A DNA stretch of 64,000 bases from an uncultured delta proteobacterium (GCA_963712115.1 CAVQGX010000014.1:22878-86877), one strand, 5' to 3'; positions 14,531 through 58,618 are shown, numbered from the stretch's first letter. Numbers and translations are program-made. Notes: generated from the sequence alone by a model not told the origin.

Positions 14531-14640
14531 CCGAGTTTTTTAGGCACGGGTCGCCTTACAGAATTCCACGGATCTAAAGGCTTTTATCTCTCACAGAGAG
14601 CGCAGAGATCTCAGAGGATAACCCCTCAGTAGATACAAGA

Positions 14641-14778
14641 GGATCGCCAAGAGTCCAACGGTGACCCTACAGAGAGGGAAAATAAGCGAGCTTGTTTTCC
14701 TCTCTGTAGGGACCCCCTAGTGTCTCGATGGCTCCCCATCGTGACACCCGCCTGTCGGCGGAAACCCTTGAGCGATCC
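14641..14778. repeat. Branched-hairpin element copy 2 (orientation A); right-end fragment also at 14894-14923
   Basis: GGATCGC...GCGATCC ends; long stem CCCTACAGAGAGG..AAGCGAGCTT..CCTCTCTGTAGGG; CGATG/CATCG and CCGC/GCGG hairpins. Confidence 0.85.
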
Positions 14779-15141
14779 GAACACATCTCCTCATTTGTTT
14801 TCATTTGAGCTCTCGGAGGGCTCGAGCGAGACCGCAGAGCGGGGGAGTGGGCGAGAGATGCTTATCCGTGTAATTCGTCAAACCTGCCATCACGCCCACC
14901 TAGCGGGGTCCTTTAAGCGATCCGTGCATTCACTCAATTTCTCTTGTTTCTCTCATCCTGCATATCCTGTTAATCCTGTCTCATTATGGCCTTTTCGTTC
15001 ATTGCAGATTGGAGTGTAGTGTATGTTTGTCTGCTAACTCCTGCTGTTAAGTCCCCGCTGTTGTCTTCTTTTTACCCATGCCCTATGCCTAATTTGGTTG
15101 ATTTGGGTTAGAAGAATTTTGGAGAGCCCACACGGAGGCCC

Positions 15142-15495
15142 ATGCTAATGACTAATCGTCGTAGGGAACCAAGGTTTACCATGCGGTTTCCGGTGAGACT
15201 CTGCAGGGATCGATTGAACCTGTGGTTTGAGGGCACGAGTGTGAATATGAGCCAGATGGGGGCCTTTATCAGGACAGAAGACTGGAGCTCTTTCCAGGTT
15301 AACGACGAGGCAATCGTCACCTGTTTTCTCCCACCAGATTTTAGCGGACAGGATGAATTCATAGCCTTGCAAGGGGAGGCGACAATTCGGAGGCTTGATC
15401 CAGTGAATAAGTGTGTGGCTGTGGAGTTTGTGAAGAGTTTTAAGCAGTTTGAGAGGTGCGTTGACGAGTCAACGCGCATGGGGAATGGAGCATAG
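15142..15495 (+). CDS. PilZ domain protein
   Basis: RxxxR (RREPR) and NxSxxG (NMSQMG) c-di-GMP motifs. Confidence 0.85.
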   Translation: MLMTNRRREPRFTMRFPVRLCRDRLNLWFEGTSVNMSQMGAFIRTEDWSSFQVNDEAIVTCFLPPDFSGQDEFIALQGEATIRRLDPVNKCVAVEFVKSFKQFERCVDESTRMGNGA

Positions 15496-15721
15496 AGCAT
15501 GGGGTTAAAAACATTACAGGCGCATAATTCAAACTTTTTGGTGGATGAAGGGGGCACAAAACAATGGCAAAATTCAGATTTCAAGATCTACGAATCTGGC
15601 AGTTGGCAATTGAAATAGCTAATGAACTATTTGATATTGCAGATGAGCTCGAAAGGAAAAAATTATACCGGTTTGCTGACCAGCTCAGAGGCTCCGGAAT
15701 GTCTATGTCTAACAATACGCG

Positions 15722-15994
15722 GCCTGTGAAATAAAGAAATGTATTATGTTTACGTTCTAAAATCAGAGCGCGATGGTGGTTTTTACATCGGTTGTTCAAA
15801 AGACCTGAGGCAAAGGGTTGAGAACCATAAAGCAGGAAGGGTGAAGTCGACGCAGAACAGACTCCCCATTGAGTTGGTTTACTATGAAGCGTGCCTGGAC
15901 CGGAGCGATGCCTTTCGCAGAGAGAAGTATTTAAAAACTACTTATGGAAGAAGATACCTGCGAAACCGGCTGAAAGGATATTTCACAGGCTAAA
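15722..15994 (+). mobile_element. IR-bounded GIY-YIG mini-element
   Basis: Perfect 12-bp IR GCCTGTGAAATA (15722-15733) / TATTTCACAGGC (15979-15990) enclosing only the nuclease ORF; splits a host gene. Confidence 0.8.
15739..15993 (+). CDS. GIY-YIG nuclease (UPF0213-like, standalone)
   Basis: YYVYVL...FYIGCSKDLRQRVENH...LVYYEA...AFRREKYLK. Confidence 0.9.
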   Translation: MYYVYVLKSERDGGFYIGCSKDLRQRVENHKAGRVKSTQNRLPIELVYYEACLDRSDAFRREKYLKTTYGRRYLRNRLKGYFTG

Positions 15995-16281
15995 AAGGTT
16001 CAGGATCTTCATCAAAGAAGGAATTCAGACGTTTCCTTAGCATCGCACGAAGGTCAACTTTCGAGAACGCTAATATTGTCATTCTATTGGAGATGAGAAA
16101 GCTTATAACCAGTAATACTTTGGATTCTCTTCTAGATCGGCTCGACAGCCTGTGCCGACAAATTACTAGTTTCCAGAATTCGCTTTGACCTATCAGTCTT
16201 TCCCTATGCTCTATGCCCTCTGCCCTATGCCTCACCTACTGACTACTACATCCAACACCTCGCGCGTCTGAAGTATGGCCT

Positions 16282-17831
16282 ATGTATTTGTCACATTACA
16301 ATTTAGCTGAGAAGCCGTTTCAGATAAGTACTGATCCGAAGTTTCTCTGGCTGGGGGAGAAGCACAGGGAGGCTTTGGCGGTGCTGAAGTACGGCATTAT
16401 CAACAACCAGGGCTTTGTCCTGCTCACCGGTGACGTGGGTACCGGCAAGACCACCCTGATCAATGCCCTGGTAAACAGCCTGGACAAAGACACCATTGTT
16501 GCGGTTGTGTCTGACCCGAAACTAGACAGGCTCGAGTTCTTTAACCTCATTGCCAAGGCTTTCAGATTCAAAAAATCATTCAAAGACAAGTTGGATTTCA
16601 CCATCTATTTCAGCCAGTTTTTGAAAGCTGCATACAGAGCAAACAAAAAAGTGCTGCTGATTATAGACGAAGCACAGAACATTTCTTTGGATTTGCTGGA
16701 AGAGATTCGATTACTATCAAATATAGAGATTCCAGAGAGAAAGCTCTTGAATATATTTTTCGTAGGGCAGAATGAATTCAATAATATCTTAATGCGAAAC
16801 AAGAATGCAGGCCTCTAAGACAGAGAATTACAGTAACCTATAATATTGAACCTCTGACTGAGACCGAAACAGGAGAATACATTACACATCGATTAAAAGT
16901 TGCCGGGGCCACCAGTGAAATATTCACTAAAGGGGCAATTGGAAAAGTATACTCCTTCTCCAAAGGTTACCCACGTCTGATCAACATTATGTGTGATCAT
17001 GCCTTGCTGACTGGTTATGTTAAGGATCTTACGACAATCACACCTAAAACAATTAAGGAATGTACCAAGGAACTCAGACTTCCTGGTGAAATCAAATCCA
17101 GTAAGGCACAAAAAGTAAGACCCAAACAGAGAGAAGGGAAAATATTCGGGAAAAGAGCTATTCTTTATTCTTGCTTGCTCTTCCTTCTGATCCCTCTTTT
17201 TTACCCTCCTGTGTCAACTACACTAAAAGGTTATCTCACCAATGTGATCAATTTCTACGACGAGTTATTTCAGCAGCTTGCCGGTCTGGCACACAGCTAT
17301 AATGCCCAGGAGGTAGGAGTAAAGGAGTATGAGAGAGCAAGTCAAACTACCACTCCGTCGCTGAATCAATTAAGTAATACAGACAGCAAACCATCTTCCG
17401 ATGATATTGTTAAAATAGATAAATCTCCTGGTGACGAATCATCAAATCTAGGTGAACATAGCTTTAATCTAACTGATTGCCAGCTGACAATCCCATTTGG
17501 ATACAATTCAAATGAAGTACCAGAAACTGCTTATGGTCCATTGGACAAATGCGCTTCGATGATGTTGCAGAACCCATCAATTGCCATGATTATCAAGGGC
17601 TACAGTGATGGCGCCGGCCCTTATGCTTACAATAATAAGCTTTCAGAATTTCGCGCAAACATTGTGAAAAGTTATCTTGTCGGCCAAGGGATAAGCCCCA
17701 AGCGAATCAAGACTGTAGGTATGGGGGAGGAGAGTCCCTTGGAGTCCAACACTACGGCAGCGGGGCGGAGAGCCAATAGGAGAGTAGAAGCGGAGGTAGA
17801 GATCAGAGGTCAGAAGTCAGAGGTCAGATGA
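16282..17831 (+). CDS. ExeA-family AAA ATPase with C-terminal OmpA-like domain; frameshift near 16800
   Basis: Walker A GDVGTGKT, IIDEAQ, GQNEF; the shifted frame resumes ECRPLRQRI...YPRLINIMCDHALL; TM segment; OmpA motifs GYSD..G...YN.KLS..RA and RANRRVE. Confidence 0.85.
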
Positions 17832-17880
17832 CAGACTTCAGCTGGCAGCAAAAAGCATATTAACCGCAGACAGGCGAGAG

Positions 17881-18050
17881 TGGGGTACTAAAACCAAATT
17901 CATGCATCCTTCCGATTTACGAAGTCAGTCAGATTGTTCTAAACTAAGAACAGTTCACGTTCCTGCAACCATTCTCCACGAGAGACAATCTTTTGGTTCT
18001 GCGCTGATCCGGTCGGATTTCTCACACAAGTTTTCACTTACCAGTAACGT
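17881..18050 (-). pseudogene. Gene-end remnant, duplicated at about 28687-28850
   Basis: Minus strand reads IVSRGEWLQERELFLV*NNLTDFVNRKDA*; the other copy reads VIVSRGEWLQERELVLVYNNLTDFVNRKDA*. Confidence 0.55.
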
Positions 18051-18183
18051 ACTATGATTCTATGCCGTGGCTGGCCCTATTGGCCTCTGCATTGTCAGGC
18101 AATGTGGGCATTCCCATAAAACCTGCTCTACTTGAGATAATTACCAATGGCTCTCACACCCAATCCTGGGAGGTTTACCTGCG

Positions 18184-18369
18184 ATGACCCATACATGCCC
18201 TCGCTGCAATAGAAAGTTCTCAGAGGATAAACCCCCGATGTTTATCGCCGCTGGTAAAGCAATTTATTTTTTCTGTTGCATTCGATGCCGAGACAAATGG
18301 GTGTACCCCAGTGATTCAAGATTGAATTTGGAGCAGAATCAGTCTGATATTCAACGGGATTTTTCGTGA
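18184..18369 (+). CDS. Small TRASH/YHS-like zinc-binding protein
   Basis: RBS GGAGG; CPRC...YFFCCIRC. Confidence 0.65.
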   Translation: MTHTCPRCNRKFSEDKPPMFIAAGKAIYFFCCIRCRDKWVYPSDSRLNLEQNQSDIQRDFS

Positions 18370-18387
18370 TTCACCGTGGTTGTCTCT

Positions 18388-18649
18388 TAACCCGGATGTT
18401 TCATGAATGGCCTGCTGCGACCGTGGATACGACCGTCCTTCTCTCCGAGCTGTAGGCTCTACGAGCCGGAAGCCTGGAGTCCTCGGGTGTTCCTTCGATA
18501 AGGGAACTTGTCCTGAGCGTAGCGAAGGAGGACAAGCTCACCCTGCGACGTACTGTTCAAGTACGCCTCGGGTCCAACCCCCTGCGGTTTCCCGGTGGCA
18601 CAGTCTTCTCCAGGGTCTCGCGACGGCAATTCATGAAACAGCCGGGTTA
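18388..18649. mobile_element. MITE-like IR element with nested palindromes
   Basis: TAACCCGGATGTTTCATGAAT ... ATTCATGAAACAGCCGGGTTA terminal IR. Confidence 0.7.
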
Positions 18650-18658
18650 GGCGAAATT

Positions 18659-18913
18659 ATGAATCAACGCCTGAGTGACAAATGTGGAGATTGTGTCTGG
18701 TGGTATGAAGGGCCTCTTTTGTGCGAAGGTTGCCCTAACAATCCAGCATCCGAGACAATGAAACTGCATTGTTCACAGTGTGAAAAGAACCTAGTTGTGG
18801 GCGATTCTTGTGAGATAGCCTTCGAAAATGACCGCTTTCACTTGTTCTGTAGCAAGGGGTGCAAAGAAAAGTGGGAGGAACTTAGGACCTCGAAACAGGA
18901 ATGTCCGACCTAA
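18659..18913 (+). CDS. Small Cys-rich protein with TRASH-like C-terminal motif
   Basis: CGDC..CEGC..CSQC..LFCSKGC; the upstream part of the tracked ORF is MITE sequence. Confidence 0.65.
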   Translation: MNQRLSDKCGDCVWWYEGPLLCEGCPNNPASETMKLHCSQCEKNLVVGDSCEIAFENDRFHLFCSKGCKEKWEELRTSKQECPT

Positions 18914-19117
18914 GCACTAGTTCTCTTACTCCCATCTCATGCAAAGGCAGAAAACCGGCACAAAACTTGCTGACTCGATTTATCCGGATACTCACTCTCC
19001 TTTTCAAAACCGAAAACATCCAGTTCAATTTCAGTAGTTTTTTGGCTCAGTAAGGTCGCTTGAGCCTGCTTGAGGACAGAGCTGGGAGCTAACAATTGCA
19101 AGCTTAGTGGTAAGCTT

Positions 19118-19468
19118 ATGGATACATCTATGGTAACCTTTAAGCGACAATGCAACAGATTCAATGGTAATTGGCCTGTTGTTGTCCTGACCGCTCACGG
19201 TGCTCTAGTAGCAGAGACATCCAATATTAGCCCTCAAGGGGCCTATATCGCTTGTGAAAAGCCGCTGCCCTCGAAAACAGAATTGAGACTTTTCATTATG
19301 TTTTCCAACGGCCGCTACGTTGAGATACTCGCCAAGGTGATTTGGTCCTATCCCTACGGATCTACTGTTGACAATAGCCCTTGTGGGATGGGCGTTCAAT
19401 TTACTAGAGTTGCTGATGCGGACCGAGAGTTCATCTCCTCTCTGTCATCGGGGTACCTCAAATTTTAG
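19118..19468 (+). CDS. PilZ domain protein
   Basis: RQCNR, NISPQG, GMGVQF. Confidence 0.8.
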   Translation: MDTSMVTFKRQCNRFNGNWPVVVLTAHGALVAETSNISPQGAYIACEKPLPSKTELRLFIMFSNGRYVEILAKVIWSYPYGSTVDNSPCGMGVQFTRVADADREFISSLSSGYLKF

Positions 19469-19634
19469 TCTGCAAACGATTTACTAGTATCTAATAATCC
19501 CATTACCTCGATCGAATCTCTCCTCCCATGATGCGATGCGCATTAGTTCTTAATCCCTGAGGTTGGCATCGCCGAGCTTGAAGTTCAGATACTTTACCCT
19601 AATATTGCAAATCCAGACCGGCAAAACCCGCTGC

Positions 19635-19683
19635 GCGAGCCCTGTTGAATAAGGTTCCCTTCGGGAAATTCAACAGGGCTCGC
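19635..19683. repeat. Short palindrome resembling the GIY-YIG element ends
   Basis: GCGAGCCCTGTTGAAT...ATTCAACAGGGCTCGC. Confidence 0.6.
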
Positions 19684-19783
19684 TGGTTCAGTTCAAAATA
19701 GGAGTTTTCTTGCATATATTCTCATTCTTTTCGATGTGTTCAATAAACTCTAGGTTGTAATCTGTGAAAGGAGGCAGGATGCC

Positions 19784-20770
19784 ATGAAGAAGGGACTTGT
19801 AGGATTTATTGTTGTTATTTTTCTCGTCATTACCATAGCAAGTGTCGGTTTTGCACAAGATATGGGTATCATTACAGGAGGCCAGAAAGGAACTTATTAT
19901 CAGTTTGGTTTAAATTTGGCAGAACTGGTCAAAAGAAATGGAATTAGCCTTAATGTCTACAATTCAAGCGGTTCGGTAGAAAACGTTTATGCGGTTTACA
20001 GGAAACCCCGCACCCAGTTAGGAATTGTACAGGCGGATGTACTGGCCTTTGTCGCAAAGGTTCAGACCGATCCGGTTTTGAAAAGAATCGCGAAAAAAAT
20101 CAAAATGGTTTTTCCACTTTACAATGAAGAGATACATCTGCTTGGCCGAAGAGAAATAACGGACTTTGATGATTTGGCTGATAAGAGGGTGGCCATTGGG
20201 AAAGAAGGAAGCGGCACCTATCTTACAGTGAGACTCTTATTCGAAATTTCAGATGTAACTCCGCGGGAAATGGTCGCCATTGGAACTGACGACGCCTTGG
20301 TGCAACTGAAGGAAGGAAAGATCGACGCAATGTTCTATGTGGCTGGTTTGCCTGTCAAATTATTTGCAGAAAACGTTTCAGAGGGAGACGGGCTTGGCCT
20401 AATCCCAATTATGAACAAAAGCATTTTGGAATTTTACCCCAGAACCGAGATTCCGGCGAATACATACACCTGGCAAAATGAATCGGTAAGTACCGTTGCA
20501 GTTAAAGCCGTACTTGTTTCGTTCGATTTTAGGAGAAATCATTGTGAAAATGTGGGGAAACTTGCTCGAATTCTTGACGATAATCTGGACTGGCTTAGAG
20601 AGAATGGACATCCAAAATGGAAATTCGTCGAGCTAGATTACCCTCTCAAAGGGTGGGAGCAATACGATTGTGTGAAAAAACATCTTAAGCCATCCCAGCG
20701 GGCTAGCGGGGAAAAAAACCAACTAATCAACCCGGTTTTGGAGGCGATAAAAGAAATGTTCGGTGAGTAG
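19784..20770 (+). CDS. TAXI-family TRAP solute-binding protein
   Basis: Signal peptide, TGGQKGTYY, SSGSVEN, LYNEEIH, GKEGSGT. Confidence 0.88.
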   Translation: MKKGLVGFIVVIFLVITIASVGFAQDMGIITGGQKGTYYQFGLNLAELVKRNGISLNVYNSSGSVENVYAVYRKPRTQLGIVQADVLAFVAKVQTDPVLKRIAKKIKMVFPLYNEEIHLLGRREITDFDDLADKRVAIGKEGSGTYLTVRLLFEISDVTPREMVAIGTDDALVQLKEGKIDAMFYVAGLPVKLFAENVSEGDGLGLIPIMNKSILEFYPRTEIPANTYTWQNESVSTVAVKAVLVSFDFRRNHCENVGKLARILDDNLDWLRENGHPKWKFVELDYPLKGWEQYDCVKKHLKPSQRASGEKNQLINPVLEAIKEMFGE

Positions 20771-20893
20771 AATTCTTTCCGCTTCCCAGATAAGCGGTAA
20801 TAATCTTTAAGCCTACAAATCCGTCATTTCTGTGACGTCGGTCTCTCAGTGTTAGAATATGTCCACTGTCATCCTTTACAGAGATGGGCATAA

Positions 20894-35140: not shown

Positions 35141-35842
35141 AATGCACTGCATAGTGCCACGCTTAAGAGAATTTATACCTATATTCTATTCCTCAAGAAT
35201 CAATTCGGAGTCACTGGCCCCGCTTTTCCTCCCTACCCATAGAACCTAAAGTCAGGACCAGTTTACAGGAAGTGTGCATTACATATTAAAGAAGACAGGA
35301 GTCAGGAGAGAGTAAGGAATTTTGGAATGATGGAATGGTGTAATGTTGGGCGAAGAGCCCAGAGGTCGGAGACACCCGCCTTCGCTAAAGCTACGGCGCG
35401 GCATGGGGCATGGAGCATAGGGCGTAGGGTTAGAGGTCAGAGGATGGAGGTCGGTTTCACTAGGCACTAAGCAGTAGGCACTAGGCACAGCAAGGCGAAT
35501 CGGGGACGGGGAGAGATGGAGACGCGGAGAGGAAAAGCCAGAGGTCAGAAGTCGGAGTTCAGAGGTCAGACGTCGGAGGTCGGAGGTCAGACTTCAGCTG
35601 GCAGCAGACAGCGGGCAGCAGGATGACGCGGTGAAGGGGAGAGACGGAGACGCGGGGGAGAAAGGCAGAGGCCAGATGAGGATTTCGGATTGCGAAACTG
35701 GGAACCCGCCCGAAGGGTGGGAGTCCGAAGGACAATTTAAAAGCAAGGAGACAGGAGTCAGCCCTTCGACAGGACCTGTCGCCGAGCTCAGGTCGAGTCG
35801 CTCAGGCGAGTCGAGGCCCGCCCTACCAGTTGATAATACCGG

Positions 35843-36112
35843 TTAGCTTGTTTTATCTATTAGCCCCTTTTCTCGCTGTACTCTTTCGTGTAGCCATACT
35901 TTGATCAAAGCTCCTCGATCTACCCCGATTGTAGCTCTGATGCGATCGATATCATTGACTAGTTCTTCAGCAATATCAACTGTAATACGGACCTTCTTGC
36001 CATGTCTGATGACCCTGGACTTGGACGTGTCAATAAGGTCATGAATATCCTCACCGTCATCGAAACGTTGATCAAACTCCTCAGTGCTTTTAGCCGATCT
36101 CTTTCTGGCCAT
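35843..36112 (-). CDS. CopG/BrnA-like antitoxin (second copy)
   Basis: 2 aa differences from the 11267 copy. Confidence 0.75.
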   Translation of the reverse strand: MARKRSAKSTEEFDQRFDDGEDIHDLIDTSKSRVIRHGKKVRITVDIAEELVNDIDRIRATIGVDRGALIKVWLHERVQREKGLIDKTS

Positions 36113-36362
36113 ATAGCGTCGCCTCCTTCTTCCTGGCGCGTCTCACCGAAATGATTCGGATTGCCTTGCCACGCCAAGTAAATACCGCTGTCCAGAGCTT
36201 ATTTTGGACCTTTCCTATGACGATGCCTCTGTTCTCAAGTGGATACGGCGGGTGGATTTCCACTCGACTATCATCTTTCCACAATTGTTTGGCGGTATCA
36301 AAATCGATACCATGCTTTGTCTTGTTTGTGCGACTCTTGTCTTCATCCCACTCGAATTCCAT
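36090..36362 (-). CDS. brnT: BrnT family toxin (second copy)
   Basis: 5 aa differences from the 11514 copy. Confidence 0.9.
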   Translation of the reverse strand: MEFEWDEDKSRTNKTKHGIDFDTAKQLWKDDSRVEIHPPYPLENRGIVIGKVQNKLWTAVFTWRGKAIRIISVRRARKKEATLYGQKEIG

Positions 36363-37016
36363 GCTGTCATTTTACTTTTTTTGTACAAAAAAGCAACATA
36401 TTTTGTATATATATCCCAATAGCAACGCTATCGTCGGTCCGAGTTACAGTGTTGAGATTAAGGGAACAGGGATCGGCGGGGAGAGGGAGGTAGGAGGGTA
36501 GATAATTGCGGATTTGGAATTCAGATTGCGAAGTTATCGCTTTGCTATTGTCCGTAGTTCCACCTTAGGCTGATCAGTTGCCCGTTGCAAATGAATGGAG
36601 CATGGGGAAAGACAGCGGGAGGCAGGCAGCGGACAGCCCCATTATGTTGGAGGGTGGAGCCAGTCTTAAGAGACGCGGAGATGGGGAGAAACGGAGACGC
36701 GGCGTTGGGAGTCATTAGGCTTCGCCGTCATTAGGTCACTACGCTACGCTGTCATTTATTGTAAGAGGTAGAGGGTCAGAAGATTGCGAATTGAAGGAAG
36801 GTGTCAGGTGTCGGGTGTCAGGAGGCAGAAGGCAGAGAGTTGGAGGTTGGAGGAGCGGCCTTCGACAAGCTGAGGCCTTGAGGTTGGAGGCAAAGCCGAA
36901 GGCTGGAATGATGGAATGTTGGGCAATGAGCATGGGATAAGTAGTCAGGAGCCAGGAGACAGAGGTTGGTCGTTTAAACCGTTGAAGTCGTTGAAATCGT
37001 TAAGGTCGTAGACTGG

Positions 37017-37232
37017 CTAAATGGCATCTCTGGAAAGCTTGTAGTTAACAGGCAACAGTCGGTCTAGATTGACATGCTTGGAGGCGTCAAGTATTTCGAT
37101 GCCTATGATTTTATCTCCGTCACCGATGTCTAACACCACATCCTCAGACAGGCGCCTGTTAATAACTTCCTGCTTTCTGTCATCCAATCGGATATAAAGA
37201 AGGTCGGTTTTATCATTATATGAAACGTGCAT
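37017..37232 (-). CDS. DUF2283 family protein (second copy)
   Basis: Protein identical to the 12357 copy. Confidence 0.85.
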   Translation of the reverse strand: MHVSYNDKTDLLYIRLDDRKQEVINRRLSEDVVLDIGDGDKIIGIEILDASKHVNLDRLLPVNYKLSRDAI

Positions 37233-37233
37233 T

Positions 37234-37497
37234 TTATGCCTCCCACTTTCCGTAAAACACATAACCCGTAACAGTTACTATCAAATCTTCTTCCTTTACA
37301 TAAAAGACCTCTACCATTTTCTGTTCATAATTTCTACCATGGCGTTCTTTTCTGAATTTATACACTTTAGCTTTCCCAATTCTGCCGCGCTTTGCGGGTA
37401 TCTCAAAGCCCGTCTCAATTACATCAGTAATTTCCTCCTCACTCGTTCCACGCTCTTCTGCTCTTTCTAGAGTATGCTGGTCAATTTGGATTCGCAT
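37234..37497 (-). CDS. DUF4258-like protein (second copy)
   Basis: 2 aa differences from the 12574 copy. Confidence 0.7.
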   Translation of the reverse strand: MRIQIDQHTLERAEERGTSEEEITDVIETGFEIPAKRGRIGKAKVYKFRKERHGRNYEQKMVEVFYVKEEDLIVTVTGYVFYGKWEA

Positions 37498-37734
37498 CTA
37501 ACCTCCTCAGCACAACTTTACTATCAGATAAACCCAATAATAGCAATGATAGCAGAGGACAGACGAGGATTTCGAATTTCGGATTGCGCCCGCCCGCCTC
37601 GCCTGAGCGAGCAGGCTCGCGATGGCGGGCAGGGATTGCGAATTTTAAAGGCAGGAGTCAGTAGTCAGCCCTTCGATCCATTCGACAGGCTCAGGGCAAG
37701 CAGGCTCGGGACAGGAATTCATGAAATATACGGG

Positions 37735-47273: not shown

Positions 47274-47601
47274 TTGTCAACTATAAATTCGGTCCGCTGC
47301 TCAGTTGACCCCAGACCATTACCAGTTGGCAGCAAGACAAAGCTCATAGCTCGAAGCTGAAAGCTCTAAGCTCAAAGCAAAAGCAAAGATTTAAAACGCA
47401 GACGGACCCTCCCGCCTCGCCTGAGTCCGCCTCAGGCGGACGATGGCGGGCTGGGAGCGCGGAGAAGAGAATTCACCACGGAGTTACACGGAAATCCACG
47501 GATTTTCTAACCACGAAGAACGCGAAGGGCACGAAGAAAAGGCATGGCTCTCACAGAGCCCACAGAGAACACAGAGAAGAATCTGTTTATGACAGTGCAG
47601 C

Positions 47602-47736
47602 GATCGCTTAAAGGTCCGCGCATGGCTGCGCGTCCCGATAGAAAGCTATCGGGAACAATGAGCAGCCATTGAGGCCAAAAATAAACGAGCTTATTTTTGG
47701 CCTCAATAGGCTACCCATAATGCCCTTTAAGCGATC
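47602..47736. repeat. Branched-hairpin element copy 4 (orientation B)
   Basis: GATCGCTTAAAG...CTTTAAGCGATC; long stem ATTGAGGCCAAAAATAA..TTATTTTTGGCCTCAAT. Confidence 0.85.
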
Positions 47737-47971
47737 CAGCATAGATAATATACAAATCTTCTACTATCCATTGATAATGAAAGGGAGTCCACTGAGGTAT
47801 TTAAGGAGCTCTCGGAGGGCTCCGGAGGCCGCGGGGCTTGCATGAAAGAATTAGTGTTCTCGGCGGATTTGATCGTTTGGTGCTTAGTGCGTAGTGCCTA
47901 GTGCCTAGTAAGATGGGTAATAAAAAGAGGTATGCCAGCCATTAATGATGGGTATCGAGGGGAGGGGTTGA

Positions 47972-48647: not shown

Positions 48648-49011
48648 GGCTTCATCCAGCAAATAGTAAAATCCAGGATCTACAATCCACTGTTTCGGCA
48701 AATATGCAAAAATTATGCAGGCTTATAGATTTTCCATTTTTACTTGTCTTTTCAAATAGTTGATGGATTAGGCACTGGCAGGCAAGTACGAAATGTAGTC
48801 GTCACATTGGGTAATTAAATGCCAATTGTGGAAAAAAAATGGATCAGTTTGGCCGGTTGAGCCGGTTTAGCCCGCTAGGAGCTTTCAACGGACAGCTGGC
48901 AGCAAAAGAAATTTAACCGCAGAGAGCGCTGAGAGCGCAGAGAAGACCACCTAACCGCAGACCCACGCAGACGAACGCAGACTTCAAGAATTCTCTCGGA
49001 GAATAAGCAAC

Positions 49012-49136
49012 GATCGCTTAAGGCCACCATGTGGCGTCCCGATTGAAAGCATCGGGAACTCATCCTTGTCATCAGTCACTGCCCATTGCTGCCGATGTAA
49101 AACATCGGTGCCAGATTCGCTGGCCCTTAAGCGACC
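49012..49136. repeat. Branched-hairpin element copy 5 (chimera: B-type left half, A-type right half)
   Basis: Two CCGAT/ATCGG hairpins and only the 3' arm of the long stem. Confidence 0.8.
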
Positions 49137-49854
49137 ATTACGATGGCATATTCACTCTGTCTCTTTAGACAAAGACTATTGACAGGCGCAGACGTCTCAT
49201 TAGACAGGATATACAGGATAGATAACATAAGAAGCTCCTACCATTGAAATGAAGGGGAGCCACTGAGGTATTTAAGGAGCTCTCGGAGTCTAGGCATGGG
49301 GCATAGGGGATGGGGCCCTTTGGGTCATTTCTTCGCCCTCGCTTCGCTCCGCTCAGTCCCGCAAGCGGGTCCCTAGTTCGGCTTCGCCGTCATTAGGTCA
49401 TTACGCTACGCTGTCATTTATCGTAATAGGTAGAGGGCCAGAAGATTTCGGATTGCGGATTTGGGATATGGGATGTGAGATAATTATCGCAGAGCGCAGA
49501 GCGTTAAGGGCGCAAGGCACTAGGTTCAAGGCAAGGGATCAAGGGCTGATCTATCGACTTCTACGATTTCTACGACTTATACGGTTTTTACGACTTCCGC
49601 TTTGAGCTTTCAGCTTAGAGCCATGAGTTTTACCTCTGCTGTCCTCTGATCTCCGACTTCCGACCTCTGGGTTCTTGCCTCTAACCTCTAACCTCTAACC
49701 TCCAACATCAACCTTGAGGCTTAGGTCTTTTGCTTTGCTCACATTGCTATTAACACTGATATCTGGTAATTAATGATCTGAAAAAGAGGAAGTACCAGTT
49801 AGAATCGACATTCAGCCGGATATGAAGCATAGAGCAATAGATATAGTGGAGTAA

Positions 49855-50450: not shown

Positions 50451-50620
50451 AATAATCTACCCTGCCCTCTTTTTATCTTACTAGCGGCTACCCGCCACTT
50501 AGTACTTACCTAGATCCGGAATCCAAAATGCTGCCTGCTGACAGCTGGCAGTAAAAGAAATTTAACCGCAGACGGACGCAGACCGCCGCAGACCTAAAAG
50601 CCTTTGAGAGAATAGGCAAA

Positions 50621-52404: not shown

Positions 52405-53367
52405 ATGGGGCTGACTCTACTAAATGATGCGTCTGAAACACCTGGATGCCTATCCATGGCAGTAGAAAAGAAACATATGACCAACGAGGAAAAGCGTAAG
52501 CACATCAGAATTAAAAGATTCTTCCGGACGAAACTGTCCAAAGATGGAATGTCGCAACCTATTGAAGGAAACACCGAGAATGTGAGCCAGGGCGGAGCTT
52601 ACATAAAAACAAAGGACTGGCATTCTTTCAAACCAAATGATAAAACTACCATCACGGTTTACCTCCCACCTATTTTTTCCGGTCAGGATGGGATTATCGG
52701 GCTGCAAGGCTCTGCTAGAATAACCAGGGTGGACGAGGACGACGAGGGTGTAGCAGTCCAGTTTCTGCAAAACTTCAAACAGTTCGAAAGAATTGAAGAA
52801 ATGGATATACCAGGAAAAATTAGATACAAGAACTTGGCCCACTATCTCTCAGCCACCTCGAGCATTCCATCGAAAGCATTTGCCGAGATGCACCCTGACG
52901 GTTTCCTGGTGGAAAAAACACAAAAGAGCATGGATAAAGAGGTCATCTTTCAGTTCAGCACCAAGTCATTCGAGGATGAGGAAGTGCTGAGGGCGCAGAG
53001 GCAAGGCGTGGTACTGGGAGACATCCTCGAGGCCAGAGTAATAGAGATAAAAGAGAGAAAAGAATCGACAACTCCTTCTCATGTCACCATAGGCCGGGCT
53101 GCTCAGAATGATATCATCCTTTACAACAAGATGGTTTCCAAGGATCACGCTTATCTGGAGATTCCTGAAAAAGGTGGGAATTGTTCCCTGGTGGATGTGG
53201 GGTCCAAGAATGGGACGCTCCTGAATGGGGATGAGGTGACCCCGAATAAGACATATCCCCTCAGAGATGGGGACGAGATATCCTTTGGTCCTGAGACCAA
53301 GGTGGTGTACTTCTCTTCAAGAACCTTCCATGAGTTTTTGACGCAACTTAAGACGCCTTCCGGCTAG
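52405..53367 (+). CDS. PilZ-FHA fusion protein
   Basis: N-terminal RKHIR/NVSQGG; C-terminal FHA IGR..NDI..VSKDHA..GSKNGT.LNG; start may be 52456. Confidence 0.85.
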   Translation: MGLTLLNDASETPGCLSMAVEKKHMTNEEKRKHIRIKRFFRTKLSKDGMSQPIEGNTENVSQGGAYIKTKDWHSFKPNDKTTITVYLPPIFSGQDGIIGLQGSARITRVDEDDEGVAVQFLQNFKQFERIEEMDIPGKIRYKNLAHYLSATSSIPSKAFAEMHPDGFLVEKTQKSMDKEVIFQFSTKSFEDEEVLRAQRQGVVLGDILEARVIEIKERKESTTPSHVTIGRAAQNDIILYNKMVSKDHAYLEIPEKGGNCSLVDVGSKNGTLLNGDEVTPNKTYPLRDGDEISFGPETKVVYFSSRTFHEFLTQLKTPSG

Positions 53368-53680
53368 TAACCTCTACTAGACACAAATCCGAATTAACTG
53401 CAGACGATTTGCTAGCGGGCAGCGGACAGCTGACAGCAAAAGATAATTAACCGCAGAGAACGCTGACCCGCACGCCTCGCCTGAGCGGCCCGTCCGCCTC
53501 GGCTGAAGCCTCGCGATGCCGGGCGGGCTCGCGATGGCGGGCTGGGAGCGCAGAGAAGAAGATTCACCACGGAGTTACACGGAAAGTCACGGGCTTTTTA
53601 ACCGCAGACGGACGCAGACAGATTGGTACCGCATAAGTGCATTGGTCTGCGGTTAGAAATAAAAAGGCTGGCACTGAGTC

Positions 53681-53959
53681 CTAATATGCGACGCTGCGGT
53701 GGGAGGCAGCAAGCATGAACACTATTTTCTCGTCATCATCGATTTCATAGAAGAAGCGGTAGGCGCCGATTCGATATCGCCAGGTGTCTGGATCGAAACC
53801 CTTTAGCTTCTTGATATTTGGTCCGAAGTGTGGATGCTCACGCAATTGAGGGTAGACATAATCGCGAAGTTTCTGTGCCACTTTGGGCTGGCCGGAACTG
53901 CCAATACGGCGTAAGTCATCTTGAAACTGTTCGGTTTCAAAAATCCGGTACTTACTCAA
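53681..53959 (-). CDS. RelE/ParE family toxin
   Basis: PHFGPNIKKL..WRYRIGAYRFFY..HR..AY. Confidence 0.88.
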   Translation of the reverse strand: MSKYRIFETEQFQDDLRRIGSSGQPKVAQKLRDYVYPQLREHPHFGPNIKKLKGFDPDTWRYRIGAYRFFYEIDDDEKIVFMLAASHRSVAY

Positions 53960-54194
53960 CGAAACTCCCTTTACGGAGACGAGCCTCCTGCGAACCCTTC
54001 TCGATACGTTTCATGAGCTCTTTGCTTGCCATGATCTCTGCTACCTCGACATCATCGGCGAATTGTTGCTCGCGGACTTTGGCCAAGGCAGCAGTCTCAA
54101 TTAGGTTCGACAGTGACCGATTTTCGGCCTTAGCTGCTTCCAAGAAAGTGATGTACGTTTCGTCACTCAGTCTAAGAGTTACCGTCTTAGGCAT
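53952..54194 (-). CDS. RHH-type antitoxin
   Basis: KTVTLRLSDE...AAKAENRSLSNLI; overlaps the toxin. Confidence 0.8.
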   Translation of the reverse strand: MPKTVTLRLSDETYITFLEAAKAENRSLSNLIETAALAKVREQQFADDVEVAEIMASKELMKRIEKGSQEARLRKGSFVE

Positions 54195-54403
54195 TTTGCA
54201 CCTACCTTGTTATTCTTTTTTATTCTATTGTATTCACAACGAAGAAAATGTCAACTGCAGACAAAAGAATTCACCACGGAGTCGCACGGAAAGTCACGGG
54301 CTTTTTAACCGCAGACGAACGCAGACCACCGCAGACGTTTCATTAGACAGGATTAACAGGATGTACAGCATAAGATAAACGAGAGAAGTCGGATTGATGC
54401 CAG

Positions 54404-54535
54404 GATCGCTTAAAGTCACAATGGTGAACCCACAGATGGGAAAACGAGCGAGCTAGTTTTCCTATCTTAGGGTTCCCCCTTTGTCCCGATGATTCCATCG
54501 GGACCACCCGCCGTGCGAGTGACCCTTAAGCGAAT
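54404..54535. repeat. Branched-hairpin element copy 8 (orientation A), inside an insertion at 54337-54586
   Basis: GATCGCTTAA...TTAAGCGAAT; apex GAGCGAGCT; GTCCCGATG/CATCGGGAC. Confidence 0.85.
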
Positions 54536-54727
54536 GTTACCTTGACATACTCACCCACTTTTTTACAGTGAATAATTATTGACATTCGCAGACAGATTGG
54601 TACCGCATAAGTGCATTGGTCTGCGGTTAGAAATAAAAAGGCAGGCGCGGTGGCCTGCCCAACTGGATTCTGACTACTGGCTGCTAACTACTTACTCTAT
54701 GCGCTATGCGCTCTGCTCTATGCGAAT

Positions 54728-55255
54728 TTAGGGCATAAATCGTTCGCCCGCAGGTTCCATAAGGGGTTCTGCCACGGGATCCATGAGAGGTTCGTAACGT
54801 GGTATTTCAAGAGGGGCAACCCAGATTTCCACCCTTATGTTAATTGAAGTAACCTGCATGTTGATAAGACAGATTCGGCTCTCCTTTTGGTAGAAGAGCA
54901 AGGTCCGAGTATATTTGAGACTGGCCTGCAACATCCAGCCGTTCTTCGCCATGGTCCCCTCAAAGAACTTGAGTAGCGACTCGTAGTCTACATTCCCGTT
55001 ATACACCAGGTTGCCCGTAGCGAATTCAGCAGTCATGTAAACAAAGGACTCTTTCGCATCTAAGTCGAGTTCTTTAGGTATGGGAACGTCGGGGAATTCG
55101 CGGATGGTCACGATTGGGGTGGGGCCTTCTTCCCCGGTGGGTTCTGTGTGAACCGTCTTGGTACAGCCTGAACATAGCAAAAAGAGGGTTAGTGCAATAC
55201 CGACGATCATTGACTTTTGCTGGCAAATGATCATGGTTATCTCCTTCTGTGTCAT
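54728..55255 (-). CDS. Hypothetical lipoprotein
   Basis: Lipobox CSGC; FPDVPIP..L...F...M..NGW. Confidence 0.7.
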   Translation of the reverse strand: MTQKEITMIICQQKSMIVGIALTLFLLCSGCTKTVHTEPTGEEGPTPIVTIREFPDVPIPKELDLDAKESFVYMTAEFATGNLVYNGNVDYESLLKFFEGTMAKNGWMLQASLKYTRTLLFYQKESRICLINMQVTSINIRVEIWVAPLEIPRYEPLMDPVAEPLMEPAGERFMP

Positions 55256-55580
55256 TATTCAAAGATCTAGCCCGGATATTTCACGTATCATTAGTCAAGA
55301 CCACCTACTTGTCAACCCGTAATCATTGAACATTTAACATTTCTTCGCGCTCACCCTGCTCCGCTCAGGCCCGCAAGCGGGTCCCTGGTGACGCATTTCT
55401 CATTGGTCATTTATCAGAGTCTCCTCTTGTATTAACCGCAGAGAACGCCGAGAGCGCAGAGTAGATCTAATTTAGATCCGCGAAGTACGCGAAGAAAGCG
55501 AATAGAGTAATCTGAATTCTTCAGACAGTATTTACAGGATGTACCGGATGTGACAAGCAAATGTAGAAGAGTTGATGATA

Positions 55581-55715
55581 GGATCGCTTAAGTAACCCCG
55601 CGGAGCGGGGCGTCCCGATGGACACATCGGGACAAATGGGAAAGCATCTGGTGGACGAAAGTAAGCTAGCTTGCTTTCGTCCACCAGCGCTTCCCATTCA
55701 GCTCTTAGGCGATCC
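55581..55715. repeat. Branched-hairpin element copy 9 (orientation B)
   Basis: Near reverse complement of copy 11. Confidence 0.88.
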
Positions 55716-56073
55716 TATCTTCTATTTGTCTTCTTCGTGGTTCTGTCTTTTATCCGTGTAATCCGCCTGCCCGCCATCGTCCGCCTGAGGCGGACTCAGG
55801 CGAGGCGGGCGGGTGTGTCCCGCCCTCGGCGGGACCCGTGCCAAAAAAACCGCTTCTCTAGGATCTATAACCCTCCGTGGTGAAAGTTTTTTGTCTGCGG
55901 CGGTCTGCGTGGGTCTGCGGTCAATTCGCAAAAGAGTGGTTCTTATCGGCTCTGTAGGCTGATTACTTGAAATACCCCTCGTGATGCACTATTATCTCAA
56001 CAAACATATTGAGACATGGAGCACGTAACACTCCAATAATCCATGGCCCTTTTGTTTCACCGCGAAGGGCTAG

Positions 56074-57588
56074 TTGGATACGCCAGGATCAACTGACATT
56101 ACGAGGTTTATGCTCATTAAAGATCAGGACTCTCATCTAAAGAACAAAAAGGGAATATTTAACCAGATAATTGAATGGGTTGCGCCACTTCGCCGCAAAA
56201 CAGAAGCCGGTGACACAGCGGTTTCACCCCACCTGCCTGATGGAAAAACCTTCACCGAATTTAACCTTAGTGACGAAATCCTAAAAGGTATCGAGAATGC
56301 CGGCTTCTTCCGTTGCACCCCCATCCAGGAACTAGCCCTACCTATAACGCTGGCAGGGGAGGATATTGCAGCTCAGGCGCAGACCGGCACCGGAAAAACC
56401 GCCGCTTTTCTCATCACCCTCTTTCAGCATCTGCGTAAAATTGACAAGCGCAAGCCAGGTATGCCCTCGGCCCTTATTCTGGCACCTACCAGGGAACTGG
56501 CATTGCAAATCTACCAAGACGGCCAGGTCCTTGGTAAATACACTGGGCTCAAAATGGTCGCTGTATTCGGAGGCATTGACTATCAGAAACAGGCCTCACA
56601 ACTACGCGAAGGAGTCGACATAGTAATCGCCACCCCGGGAAGACTGATCGATTACATGAAACAAAAGGCTTTTATTCCTGAACGGATCAAGATCCTGGTG
56701 GTTGATGAGGCAGACCGAATGTTCGATATGGGCTTCATTAAGGACCTGCGCTATATTCTAAGACGTTTGCCCTCCTATGACCAGCGCCAGTCAATGCTTT
56801 TTTCGGCAACTTTGTCGTCACGCGTCCTGGAACTGACCTACGAGTACATGAACCTGCCCAAGGAAATCTATGTCACGCCGGACGAGATAACCGTGGAAAC
56901 TGTGGAGCAGTCTGTCTTTCACGTTGCTAAACACGAGAAACTACGTTTGCTGTTAGGGGTGCTTGCAAAAGAACCTTGGGAAAGGGTGCTTATTTTTGCT
57001 AACACCAAGGCCACGGTGGAGTGGCTAAGCGCAAAACTCAAAGGAAATGGTTATCCAGTCAAGGGACTGAGCGGAAATCTTAATCAACGGCAAAGGCTAA
57101 AAATCATTAACCATTTTAAGTCCGGAGATCTCAAGATCCTCGTTGCTACTGATGTGGCCTCTAGAGGTCTGCACGTGGAAGAAATCTCTCATGTTATCAA
57201 CTACGATTTGCCGCAGGATCGGGAAGATTACATACATCGGATTGGTCGCACCGCCCGGGCCGGTATGTCAGGCAAGGCCATTAGTCTGGCCTGCGAGGAG
57301 TACGTTTACTCACTGGAGGCCATTGAGGAATATATAGGCGAAAAAATACCCGTATTCTGGCCTGAAGATGATTGGCTATTACCAGACAAATCGGGGAGAT
57401 TCCGTGCTGCTGACCGGCCAAAAATGGGGCAAAAAAGAAGGGGCTCTCCTCCCCGTAAGGGAAAACCCGGCCAGCGATCCCGTGGAGGAACTCGACCGAA
57501 AAAGCAATCGCGGGGCAAAAGTTCGCAAAGCGCAAAGCGTAAGAAGCCAGAGGGCAGAGGTCCGAAGTCAGAGGTCAGTAAAAACTAG
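56074..57588 (+). CDS. DEAD-box RNA helicase (RhlB-like)
   Basis: CTPIQ, AQTGTGKT, PTRELA, TPGR, DEAD, SAT, HRIGRTARAG, SLACEEY. Confidence 0.92.
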   Translation: MDTPGSTDITRFMLIKDQDSHLKNKKGIFNQIIEWVAPLRRKTEAGDTAVSPHLPDGKTFTEFNLSDEILKGIENAGFFRCTPIQELALPITLAGEDIAAQAQTGTGKTAAFLITLFQHLRKIDKRKPGMPSALILAPTRELALQIYQDGQVLGKYTGLKMVAVFGGIDYQKQASQLREGVDIVIATPGRLIDYMKQKAFIPERIKILVVDEADRMFDMGFIKDLRYILRRLPSYDQRQSMLFSATLSSRVLELTYEYMNLPKEIYVTPDEITVETVEQSVFHVAKHEKLRLLLGVLAKEPWERVLIFANTKATVEWLSAKLKGNGYPVKGLSGNLNQRQRLKIINHFKSGDLKILVATDVASRGLHVEEISHVINYDLPQDREDYIHRIGRTARAGMSGKAISLACEEYVYSLEAIEEYIGEKIPVFWPEDDWLLPDKSGRFRAADRPKMGQKRRGSPPRKGKPGQRSRGGTRPKKQSRGKSSQSAKRKKPEGRGPKSEVSKN

Positions 57589-57789
57589 GCACAATCTGTG
57601 GCGAGACGCGCGAGACAGGGAAAACATAAGTCGGACACGGAGGCCCGCCCTGCTGGCTACTGACTGGACATAATCTCAGTAACATCCGCGAAGTACTCGA
57701 AGAGCACGAATAAAGAAAGCTGAATTAATTTGACAGGATTTACAGGATATACCGGATAAGAGCAGCATGAGAAACTGAGCCGATGAAGG

Positions 57790-57922
57790 GATCGCTTAAA
57801 AGGTCCATGTGGGAACCTTGAGCATCAAAAATAAGCCAGCTTATTTTTGAGCTCTAGGGTTCCACATTAATCCCGATGATCCCATCGGGGTCACCCGCTA
57901 TGCGGGGTACTTTTAAGCGATC
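57790..57922. repeat. Branched-hairpin element copy 10 (orientation A)
   Basis: GATCGCTTAAAAG...CTTTTAAGCGATC; TCAAAAATAAGCCAGCTTATTTTTGA. Confidence 0.88.
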
Positions 57923-58022
57923 TCAACTCTCTGCGTGCTCTGCGTTCCCTGCCCGCCATCGTCCGCCTGAGGCGGACTCAGGCGAGGCGGGCGGGTCTGC
58001 GGTTAATCGGTAGGGGTTGTAG

Positions 58023-58277
58023 ATGCGTGCTGCCAGACTTTTGGGAGAATTGGAGTCCTTGGCGGAAAAGCTTGGAGTCGAGGTCGTTTACGAACGATTG
58101 CCCCGCTGCCGCAGTGGCCTCTGTCGAGTAAATGAGCAGTATCTTCTTTTTGTGGATAGAGCTCTGCCCGAAGATGCGCAAGTGGACGTGTTTATCTCTG
58201 CCCTTTCACGCTTTCCTCTGGATGATCTTCAAGTGCTCCCCTACGTCAGGGAAATTTTCGAGTCCCACAAATTATAA
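58023..58277 (+). CDS. Small hypothetical protein
   Basis: 84 aa; LAEKLGVEV.YE..GLCRV..LFVD pattern, reminiscent of an ImmA/IrrE N-terminal half without HExxH. Confidence 0.65.
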   Translation: MRAARLLGELESLAEKLGVEVVYERLPRCRSGLCRVNEQYLLFVDRALPEDAQVDVFISALSRFPLDDLQVLPYVREIFESHKL

Positions 58278-58488
58278 AGCATAGAGTGAGAAGCCAGTAG
58301 TCAGTAGCCAGTAGTAATTTCGAAATTTGAAACTGAAACTCCGCAATCCGAAATCATCTCCCTATTCCCCTCGCCTTCCTAAATCCACGAAGTACGCAAA
58401 AAACGCGAATAGAGGAATCTGAATTCTTTAGACAGGATTAACAGGATATACAGGATTAGAGAAGCAGAATGAACTGAGTCTATTGAAG

Positions 58489-58618
58489 GATCGCTTAAGG
58501 GCTGAATGGGAAGGCCTGGTAGACGAAAGTCAGCTAGCTCACTTTCGTCTACCAGGCTTTCCCATTGGTCCCGATGTGCCATCGGACACCCCGCTTCGCG
58601 GGGGGCACTTAAGCGATC
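58489..58618. repeat. Branched-hairpin element copy 11 (orientation A)
   Basis: GATCGCTTAAG...CTTAAGCGATC; GCCTGGTAGACGAAAG/CTTTCGTCTACCAGGC. Confidence 0.88.

Follow-up and report, generated by a model that had tools for sequence, protein, structure and literature searches.

Why does the same flanking module stand before a branched intergenic repeat in both of the repeat's orientations? The question is raised by a 64,000-nucleotide stretch of DNA from an uncultured delta proteobacterium of the sulfate-reducer type (GCA_963712115.1, CAVQGX010000014.1:22878-86877; hereafter the window), in which a four-armed palindromic repeat of about 133 nt, here called the core, recurs between genes. A preliminary description had reported that three left-flank modules each precede the core in both states, and had concluded that the interior inverts between its own terminal repeats independently of the flanks, a behaviour it likened to that of parvoviral hairpin termini or of an invertible switch. 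Our answer is divided. For the first module, and for a matching locus in a sister species, the alignments support inversion of the core independently of its flanks; for the other two modules the mirror symmetry of the surrounding arms suffices. As to how the core came to lie both ways, we lean, a little short of an even chance, towards passive inversion between the inverted repeats of a mosaic foldback repeat over evolutionary time.

The core is a four-way junction, closed by a 12-13-bp inverted repeat (GGATCGCTTAAG … CTTAAGCGATCC) that encloses three hairpins. Read along what we call the B strand (A being its reverse complement), these are hairpin 1, short and G+C-rich (CCCNGC … GCNGGG); hairpin 2, with the conserved stem TCCCGAT … ATCGGGA; and a long hairpin of ~25 pairs, conserved at its base (AATGG/CCATT) and apex (ATAAGCNAGCTTAT), whose middle varies between copies yet stays paired. 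The terminal-repeat word GGATCGCTTAAG occurs 22 times in the window with up to two mismatches, against 5.4 expected. Applied to 14 copies, RNAalifold predicted a four-way junction; of its 46 pairs, 23 show compensatory changes. When 72 copies (70 distinct) were aligned to a covariance model, 92.5% of cells were paired and 37 of the 46 pairs changed on both sides; being fitted to the model, this alignment leans towards it, with a large margin over the controls, where none of 500 shuffles matched any of five pairing measures and slid partners gave 35-52% paired. The covariation bears out the branched fold that had been proposed. The closing stem comprises 13 contiguous pairs, 94.6% paired (GCTTAA(G/A) … (C/T)TTAAGC), and is conserved in sequence, as is hairpin 2; conserved positions lie nearly all in helices, and few are unpaired. 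Part of the stem covariation may be mutational rather than selected, because template switching within quasi-palindromes would renew stem pairing.

The exceptional case is module (i), ATCC(G/A)CGAAGTAC…GACAG..TTACAGGAT, which was recovered at 55477, 57685 and 58383. Cores follow ~104 nt on, at 55581 on the plus strand (B) and at 57789 and 58488 on the minus strand (A). The likeness of the modules that precede both orientations is real, with local alignments between flanks scoring 85-106 against a null 99th percentile of 21. None of the three loci is self-symmetric: the left flank against the reverse-complemented right flank scored 19, 17 and 13, respectively. Compared on the plus strand, the loci at 55581 and 58488 have like left flanks (CGAAG array, linker, ACAGGAT array and 31-nt spacer; local score 103) and, more weakly, like right flanks (score 30), in which ~36 nt, ATCCGTG.AATCCG and a GGCACGGGTC-type hairpin are shared. 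The cross comparisons, left with reverse-complemented right and the converse, gave 14 and 17. In a global alignment over 349 nt, the score rose from 168 as is to 300 with only the core inverted, and fell to 128 with everything inverted; the best score, 304, was reached with boundaries no more than 11 nt from the core ends. The two cores are 79% identical. For the control pair 57789 and 58488, which share an orientation, inversion lowered the score from 224 to 132. Judged from these alignments, the core at module (i) is inverted relative to an asymmetric, colinear scaffold.

The sister species G006 provides a further comparison. The intergenic region upstream of the DEAD-box helicase gene (56074-57588) could be matched there through the helicase gene itself (91% identical); the flanks lie on the same strand and the core on the opposite strand. 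Among 69 cores, each of the two is the other's best match, at 87%; at this matching locus the core is inverted within colinear outer flanks. In a scan of all inversion boundaries, the unaltered pair scored 67; inverting the core alone raised the score to 235, and inverting the whole stretch gave 95. The maximum, 255, was reached with the left boundary 40-55 nt and the right boundary 50-60 nt beyond the core, in ACAGGAT/ATCCTGT arrays. A pattern scan of metagenomes with a conserved 26-mer from the left of the 55581 core returned a single contig, which is arranged like the G006 locus and adds no new state. Contigs of four public runs over 54000-60000 consist of 120-520-nt unitigs from mixed related populations, whose joints link different repeat copies; none of them spans a core together with its flanks so as to reveal either state.

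A third pair behaves alike. The 57789 core and copy L061, 90% identical, scored 118 as is and 262 with the core inverted; the best score, 290, placed the boundaries 55 and 62 nt out, again in ACAGGAT/ATCCTGT arrays. In all three comparisons, therefore, an inverted-repeat pair bounds the inverted segment, but it is not always the core's own: two of them place the best boundary 40-62 nt beyond the core, in the next such pair. To that extent the proposal that the breakpoints fall at the core's own terminal repeats does not hold.

These results are consistent with the following sequence of events. The core would be the asymmetric centre of a lineage-specific non-coding foldback element, with nested inverted-repeat arms around it. 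Because every layer is an inverted-repeat pair, any arm pair could invert its interior: recombination between the arms, or replication template-switching at a stalled fork, would invert what lies inside the pair and spare what lies outside. Such inversions, repeated as the family spread and diverged, would leave the core in either orientation behind the same flank. We infer that the process is passive and mediated by inverted repeats rather than enzymatic; a comparable process is invoked for the small hairpin-associated inversions of chloroplast DNA (PMC12371153).

The remaining two modules call for no such event. The 86 cores of this genome and its relatives obey a mirror rule with two exceptions, in that a module matches in forward polarity on the 5' side of the core or in reverse polarity on its 3' side; the 78-nt c-y-d module never scores above 20 in the wrong polarity. 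The core is thus the only strongly asymmetric part, at the centre of a larger palindrome. The same module is expected before both core orientations because, whichever strand is read, the core is preceded by the purine-rich form of an arm. Module (ii), ATTAGACAGGATTAACA.GATGTACAG, was found as described, at 10257 before the core at 10305-10394 (+) and at 54342 before the core at 54403-54536 (-), and it flanks the 10305 core twice, at 10261 (+) on one side and at 10426 (-) on the other. Module (iii), CTCTCACAGAG..CAGAG..CAGAG, likewise precedes cores of opposite strand (14588 before 14641-14778 on the minus strand, 47548 before 47601-47737 on the plus strand), and is one arm of a CACAGAG/CTCTGTG inverted-repeat pair that brackets the core. 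Inverting the core in silico barely helps at either module (best scores 71 and 63). As far as the alignments go, modules (ii) and (iii) are explained by the mirror symmetry of the arms and need no inversion, because the arms are mirror images.

The copies in the window, with the modules and repeats around them, are the following; bit scores are those of the covariance model.

10257..10304, plus strand: module (ii), ACAGGAT array and spacer; mirrored copy at 10426-10451 (-), further copy at 54342-54402 (+)
10305..10394, plus strand: core truncated to 90 nt, most of the long hairpin deleted; 68.9 bits (R1)
14588..14640, plus strand: module (iii), CACAGAG/CTCTGTG arm of a class-1 foldback; the counterpart arm of another core is at 47548-47600
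14641..14778, minus strand: class-1 core with a CTCTCGCCC hairpin arm on the 5' side and a CTCTGTG arm on the 3' side (B frame); 85.9 bits
14894..14923, minus strand: fragment of a core, comprising hairpin 1 and the 5' arm of the closing stem, next to an ACAGGAT array (14955); nhmmer E=0.18, 13.4 bits
39772..39902, minus strand: class-2 core with TGATCGCTTGAAAG ends, GTCTGCG..TGTCAATA on the 5' side and (GTCTGCGnn)3TTAA on the 3' side; 91.1 bits
47601..47737, plus strand: core with the CACAGAG arm on its 5' side, opposite to the usual class-1 layout; 97.6 bits
49011..49137, minus strand: chimeric core, a class-2 5' half head to head with the inverted 5' part of another core; 50.9 bits
50620..50748, minus strand: class-2 core; 81.4 bits
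51768..51897, minus strand: class-2 core; 92.7 bits
53598..53656, plus strand: core-less mini-element, made of a TTAACCGCAGAC arm, a loop and a GTCTGCGGTTAG arm
54403..54536, minus strand: class-2 core within a TTAACCGCAGAC (54305) … GTCTGCGGTTAG (to 54637) element, directly behind the terminator of the gene at 54728-55255; 91 bits
55477..55580, plus strand: module (i), CGAAG array, unique linker, ACAGGAT array and 31-nt spacer; copies at 57685-57788 and 58383-58487 (left against left flank, score 103)
55581..55715, plus strand: class-3 core, flipped relative to module (i); 127.8 bits
55766..55813, plus strand: 48-nt hairpin repeat 'j' to the right of the core, an independent family (CCTGCCCGCCATCG…GGCGGGCGGG); second copy at 57948-57995
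57789..57923, minus strand: class-3 core in the usual orientation relative to module (i); 121.7 bits
58488..58619, minus strand: class-3 core in the usual orientation relative to module (i); 117.6 bits
59423..59551, minus strand: class-2 core, directly behind the terminator of a carboxypeptidase gene; 81.7 bits

Viewed in the B frame, the flanks fall into three classes, and the core subfamily tracks the arm type in all three. Class 1, the commonest, includes the core at 14641 and runs ATCTCTC, a hairpin GCCCG…CTCGAG, (N)CAGAG arrays, ~20 nt, the core, ~40 nt, CTCTGAG/CTCTGTG arrays and AGAGAT; the whole element folds as a single rod with the junction at its tip (z = -8.3). Class 2 (39772, 50620, 51768, 54403 and 59423) consists of GTCTGCGnnTGTCAATA, ~40 nt, the core, ~25 nt and (GTCTGCGnn)3TTAA, with TTAACCGCAGAC arrays at the far end. 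Class 3 (55581, 57789, 58488, 10305 and C59:16850; C numbers denote contigs) has arrays of ACAGGAT, CACGAAG and CACGGAT. The arms of all these elements are short heptamer arrays of 2-4 units with a period of 9-10 nt (CGCAGAC, ACAGGAT, CACGAAG, CACAGAG and others). In the ACAGGAT arrays (10261, 54346, 55524, 57732 and 58431), (T)ACAGGAT(G) is repeated three times at 9-nt spacing, which we take to resemble the repeated GGA motifs bound by CsrA in CsrB-type RNAs. Four copies from a record titled Desulfatiglandales MAG (metagenome-assembled genome; L034, L039, L047 and L048) form a near-identical class-1 subfamily with the arm hairpin on the opposite side compared with the other 26 class-1 copies scored. 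In this case, four of 30 arm matches, the spacers are not significantly alike (right against right, 17-22), and either the core or the arm may be what moved.

Some sites may record rearrangement. The chimera at 49011-49137 joins a class-2 closing arm, hairpins 1 and 2 and the 5' arm of the long hairpin to an inverted closing arm with hairpins 1 and 2. Its structure suggests the expected remnant of an inversion or template switch that broke inside the palindromic long hairpin; the reciprocal product was not found. Arms free of a core occur at 53598-53656, C47:5338 and C31:145687. One class-3 scaffold alone, C15:16138, has no core, and because it still carries 7 nt of the terminal repeat it represents a deletion and not an empty site. 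In G006, L070 (G006:C96:2076-2492) and L071 (G006:C335:1942-2339) each hold two opposed cores, 131-152 nt apart, within one TTAACCGCAGAC/GTCTGCGGTTAA arm pair, and such a palindromic doublet stands where this genome has a single core.

Other repeats and toxin-antitoxin loci were also noted in the window. The 48-nt repeat 'j' has 44 copies in the genome, two of them near cores; it is 96-100% identical in other species of the genus and far better conserved across species than the genes around it. Both TTAACCGCAGAC … GTCTGCGGTTAG arms and a ~60-nt direct repeat (53617-53670 and 54587-54650) enclose a ParE-type toxin-antitoxin pair (53681-54194) that G006 does not have at the matching place. A segmental duplication (10957-12978 and 35540-37645) carries two toxin-antitoxin loci, BrnT-type and DUF4258/DUF2283, which are 93.6% and 98.3% identical.

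To follow the side on which a module stands over the history of the cores, a tree was built of the 16 cores that carry the c-y-d module, which lies on the left in three, on the right in eight and on both sides in five. Side was no more clustered on the tree than in shuffles (9 changes, shuffled mean 9.0). The 3 rows with the 'left' state took 3 changes, and even if only well-supported branches are counted, this state must have arisen at least twice.

A number of observations weigh against passive inversion and temper our preference for it. The two states are seen between loci and between species, so that support for inversion applies only to evolutionary time. A 12-13-bp repeat is short for homologous recombination, and the part played by template switching is conjectural. 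The core tree rests on 135 columns, with most branches weak. The loci at 55581 and 58488 resemble each other modestly in their right flanks; five of the 16 c-y-d cores have the module on both sides; and in their own frame the cores at 55581, 57789 and 58488 all keep the CGCAGAG array on the 5' side. These last two facts make it possible that different halves were lost from a symmetric ancestor. The loci are also unstable. Upstream of the helicase gene, the genomes G012, G011 and G010 carry other repeats or a gene and no core. The gap between the PilZ and carboxypeptidase genes holds one class-2 core here, two opposed cores in G006 and a class-3 core in G007, and a class-2 core near-identical to one of G006 sits at another locus in G012. 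Elements are thus frequently gained, lost or replaced, and re-insertion could mimic inversion.

Two other readings account for parts of this pattern with no inversion in place. According to one, which we regard as unlikely though deserving serious attention, the ancestor was fully mirror-symmetric and individual copies then shed either side. Mirror polarity in the 86 cores, with its two exceptions, and the two-sided c-y-d modules are what such an ancestor would leave behind, and so are the self-symmetry scores of 35-45 for copies w10305, L061, L056 and L058; modules (ii) and (iii) are accounted for in full. At 55581, 57789 and 58488, however, self-symmetry is absent, and the colinear but differing flanks of 55581 and 58488 would mean that the hypothetical ancestor was much larger and that each locus lost one entire half of it, not the same half in both. 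The other reading, which we consider improbable, treats the core alone as a mobile miniature inverted-repeat transposable element (MITE) that enters palindromic arm elements already in place, at their centre and either way round, as certain insertion sequences do at hairpins of the repetitive extragenic palindromic (REP) type. The core has the terminal inverted repeats, the small size, the lack of coding capacity and the copy number of a MITE. The arms without cores, the near-identical class-2 cores at different loci in G006 and G012, the variable presence of cores at the same intergenic spots between species, and the flip boundary of 55581/58488 within 11 nt of the core ends would all fit. 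Against this reading, no direct repeats indicative of target duplication were seen by eye at the core ends in the flanks of 33 + 33 copies. Moreover, the core subfamily tracks the arm type; the 55581 and 58488 cores (79% identity) have diverged about as far as their left flanks (score 103); and C15:16138, the candidate empty site, is a deletion. An autonomous partner was sought among larger elements bounded by the core's terminal repeats and none was found in this genome, where repeat pairs 600-3500 nt apart were only neighbouring cores.

A programmed flip/flop, driven by a site-specific invertase or an HUH nickase acting at the closing repeat, seems to us very unlikely. The geometry does recall inverted terminal repeats (ITRs), with a long palindrome around small asymmetric hairpins; sequence conservation in the closing stem and in hairpin 2 is what a protein-binding site would show; and on the B strand wobble pairs comprise 154 G:T against 59 A:C, a bias present in all four helices that fits single-strand folding, although the count is inflated by the model-fitted alignment and by the kinship of the copies. 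The genome also encodes four Y1/HUH proteins (PF01797). Their genes, however, lie on C20, C48, C56 and C64, none beside a core or on a core-bearing stretch; they comprise two identical IS200/605-like copies, one further copy and one RAYT-like gene, all with unrelated flanking hairpins, and neither the core nor its hairpins were found beside any of the four. No serine recombinase (PF00239) was matched in the genome, which is 94% complete, so that an enzyme could have been missed. The 12 tyrosine recombinase matches (PF00589) all lie off C14, the window's contig, and C31, and a Pfam scan of the open reading frames (ORFs) of the window returned no recombinase. The boundaries found outside the core in two of three comparisons likewise argue against this reading. 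Of the two analogies first drawn, the invertible switch lacks an adjacent recombinase, and the rolling hairpin lacks its substrate, because the sites are internal to the chromosome and not linear ends. A variant in which the core, folded on the lagging-strand template into its four-way junction, would be nicked at the base of the closing stem and resynthesised by hairpin transfer, perhaps by an orphan Y1/HUH protein acting in trans, we likewise rate as highly improbable; if true, it would be a bacterial chromosomal counterpart of rolling-hairpin resolution. A consensus scan, which is weak evidence, showed no promoter-like site within the cores at 55581, 57789 and 58488 and one in a flank (55550-55579). 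The identical IS200/605-like copies (C64:8012-8374 and C48:16547-16906) have the end hairpins CCCCGCAGCTTGCTGCGGGG and ACCCTGCAGCTTGCTGCAGGGT. The apex of the core's long hairpin, AGC(A/T)(A/T)GCT, was likened to the end loops of these copies, and at 8 nt the match is too short to count. The RAYT-like gene (C20:238180-238446) is flanked by GGGGCGGGG…CCCCGCCC hairpins next to GTAG.

Compatible with any of these readings is a further one, of which we are doubtful: that the core acts as a structured RNA of 3' untranslated regions, with its orientation set by local transcription. The strong covariation and the G:U excess on the B strand are in its favour, and, according to a crude ORF proxy, 22 of 35 copies have the B strand co-oriented with the gene upstream. 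The remaining 13 do not, few unpaired positions are conserved, and the window has no Rfam 15 match at the gathering score, with only chance-level matches at E<=1 on four loci. Furthermore, several copies start right after the T-tract of an intrinsic terminator (54639-54660 on the minus strand, 59637-59660 on the minus strand and the C59:17100 region). The terminator junction is identical in class-2 and class-3 elements (…CTTTTTATTTC|TAACCGCAGAC…), which suggests that these elements target terminators. The wobble bias points to B as the strand that adopts the fold when single-stranded, and speaks to that degree against a purely neutral view of the core. Because several copies directly follow terminator T-tracts, a role at the DNA level is somewhat likelier than one as RNA, and we loosely favour lagging-strand-template DNA as the single-stranded form. 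Of 34 copies, 21 have the B strand in a G-rich context, as in leading-strand sequence, and outside C14 the figure is 18 of 22; ten of these copies are on one contig and the count is confounded with gene direction, so that it offers a weak hint at most.

The family is numerous and phylogenetically narrow. Within the 4.9-Mb genome, the covariance model, which scored 150 of ~1000 first-look candidates, placed cores at 33 distinct places at E<=1.6e-7, 12 of them in the window, plus two weak ones; an independent nhmmer search of the whole genome added two fragments only. All 33 copies sit between ORFs, in mosaics of array modules, and the 12 in the window are contig-internal and between genes. The intervening genes point both ways and include conserved housekeeping genes; the window as a whole codes for a sigma-54 activator, an exosortase, PilZ proteins and many toxin-antitoxin pairs. 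C14 and C31 together carry 23 of the 33 copies. C14 itself (87 kb) holds 12 of the genome's 33 cores, ten of its 11 CGCAGAC arrays and six of its seven ACAGGAT arrays; classes 2 and 3 are nearly private to this contig, which may reflect an island or a binning issue. Beyond this genome, 16 of 17 congeneric genomes carry the repeat, as do two of four from other genera of the same family; in 19 genomes from five other families of the class it was not found. In an exact-pattern scan with one genome per species, 33 of 40 loci matched the model at 74-131 bits, and 32 of the 33 come from records titled Desulfobacterota or 'Deltaproteobacteria' MAGs, the exception being a contig of 763 nt under the title Methanosarcinales. 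The model gives no match for the remaining seven loci, which come from cyanobacterial, Cognaticolwellia and Acidobacteria records and one more. By these searches the core is confined to one family of uncultured Desulfobacterota. A cyanobacterial origin of the window, raised by GCGATCGC-like words, was ruled out on the strength of the sigma-54 activator and exosortase genes and of the failure of the cyanobacterial pattern loci against the model.

No prior description of the core family was found in the literature, on the thin basis of a narrow literature search plus Rfam. The family adds a well-defined, structure-conserved member to the short list of bacterial intergenic mosaics, from uncultured relatives of sediment sulfate reducers. 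It also offers a clean bacterial case of segments bounded by inverted repeats that flip within colinear DNA, both between paralogues and between sister species. Such elements break assemblies and gene order, as with the toxin-antitoxin pair that lies between arm-repeat copies here and is absent in the sister species, and covariation as strong as theirs could wrongly be read as a sign of a functional RNA. The strand-biased wobble pairs allow a test of whether single-stranded DNA or RNA is the selected form. Were the flipping enzymatic, its importance would be far greater; nothing here points that way.

Among known systems, the parvoviral ITR resembles the core in its geometry. There, linear DNA ends flip and flop through nicking by Rep, an HUH protein, and hairpin transfer at every replication. 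Like the core, the ITR places an outer palindrome around small asymmetric hairpins, with an interior that occurs in two inverted configurations; the core, in contrast, is internal to the chromosome, has no linked HUH gene and inverts between varying boundaries. Integron attC sites, the longer of which have a branched interior, share with the core the keeping of structure over sequence, a strand bias in folding and a position between small genes, including toxin-antitoxin pairs. Their boxes are RYYYAAC/GTTRRRY, whereas the core's closing stem reads GCTTAAG/CTTAAGC and has no AAC/GTT triplet. An attC reading was ruled out by the R boxes, by the 13-pair stem free of extrahelical bases and by the lack of an integrase (tyrosine recombinase) on the contig.

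The closer parallels are the bacterial repeat mosaics. The REP sequences, bacterial interspersed mosaic elements (BIMEs) and REPINs of Enterobacteria and Pseudomonas (PMC2817692, PMC3333891 and PMC3116915) are, like the core, intergenic palindromes that occur in both orientations in mosaics with other short motifs, in tens of copies or more, often behind genes, and with gene content that differs at the repeats. The core family shows the same mosaic structure and alternating orientation, with inverted core doublets in G006. A REP is nevertheless a simple hairpin of 20-40 nt with a GTAG or CGTC head, whereas the core is a ~133-nt four-way junction with GGATCGCTTAAG ends, set in nested heptamer arms; and a REP-associated tyrosine transposase (RAYT) gene is flanked by the same repeat, whereas the RAYT-like gene on C20 is flanked by another, GTAG-type hairpin. 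Foldback transposons (Drosophila FB) and the NIME, BOX, ERIC and Correia elements (in part after PMC3049150) are likewise modular, with arms of inverted sub-repeats around a centre; the present element differs in having no known transposase partner, very short heptamer arrays (2-4 units) and a conserved branched centre.

For the flip itself the nearest counterpart lies outside bacteria. In chloroplast non-coding DNA, small hairpin-associated inversions are recurrent, with loops typically of 4-50 bp (the relevant passages of PMC12371153, citing Kelchner & Wendel 1996). As those passages present it, a segment between short inverted repeats flips while its flanks stay in place, with no dedicated enzyme and with the states scattered over phylogenies, as we find for the core. 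The scale differs: here the interior is structured and 107 nt long, reaching ~250 nt when outer repeats are included, and it belongs to a multi-copy bacterial repeat. By analogy, then, the element works most like the REP/BIME/REPIN mosaics and foldback elements, and it flips like the hairpin inversions of chloroplasts.

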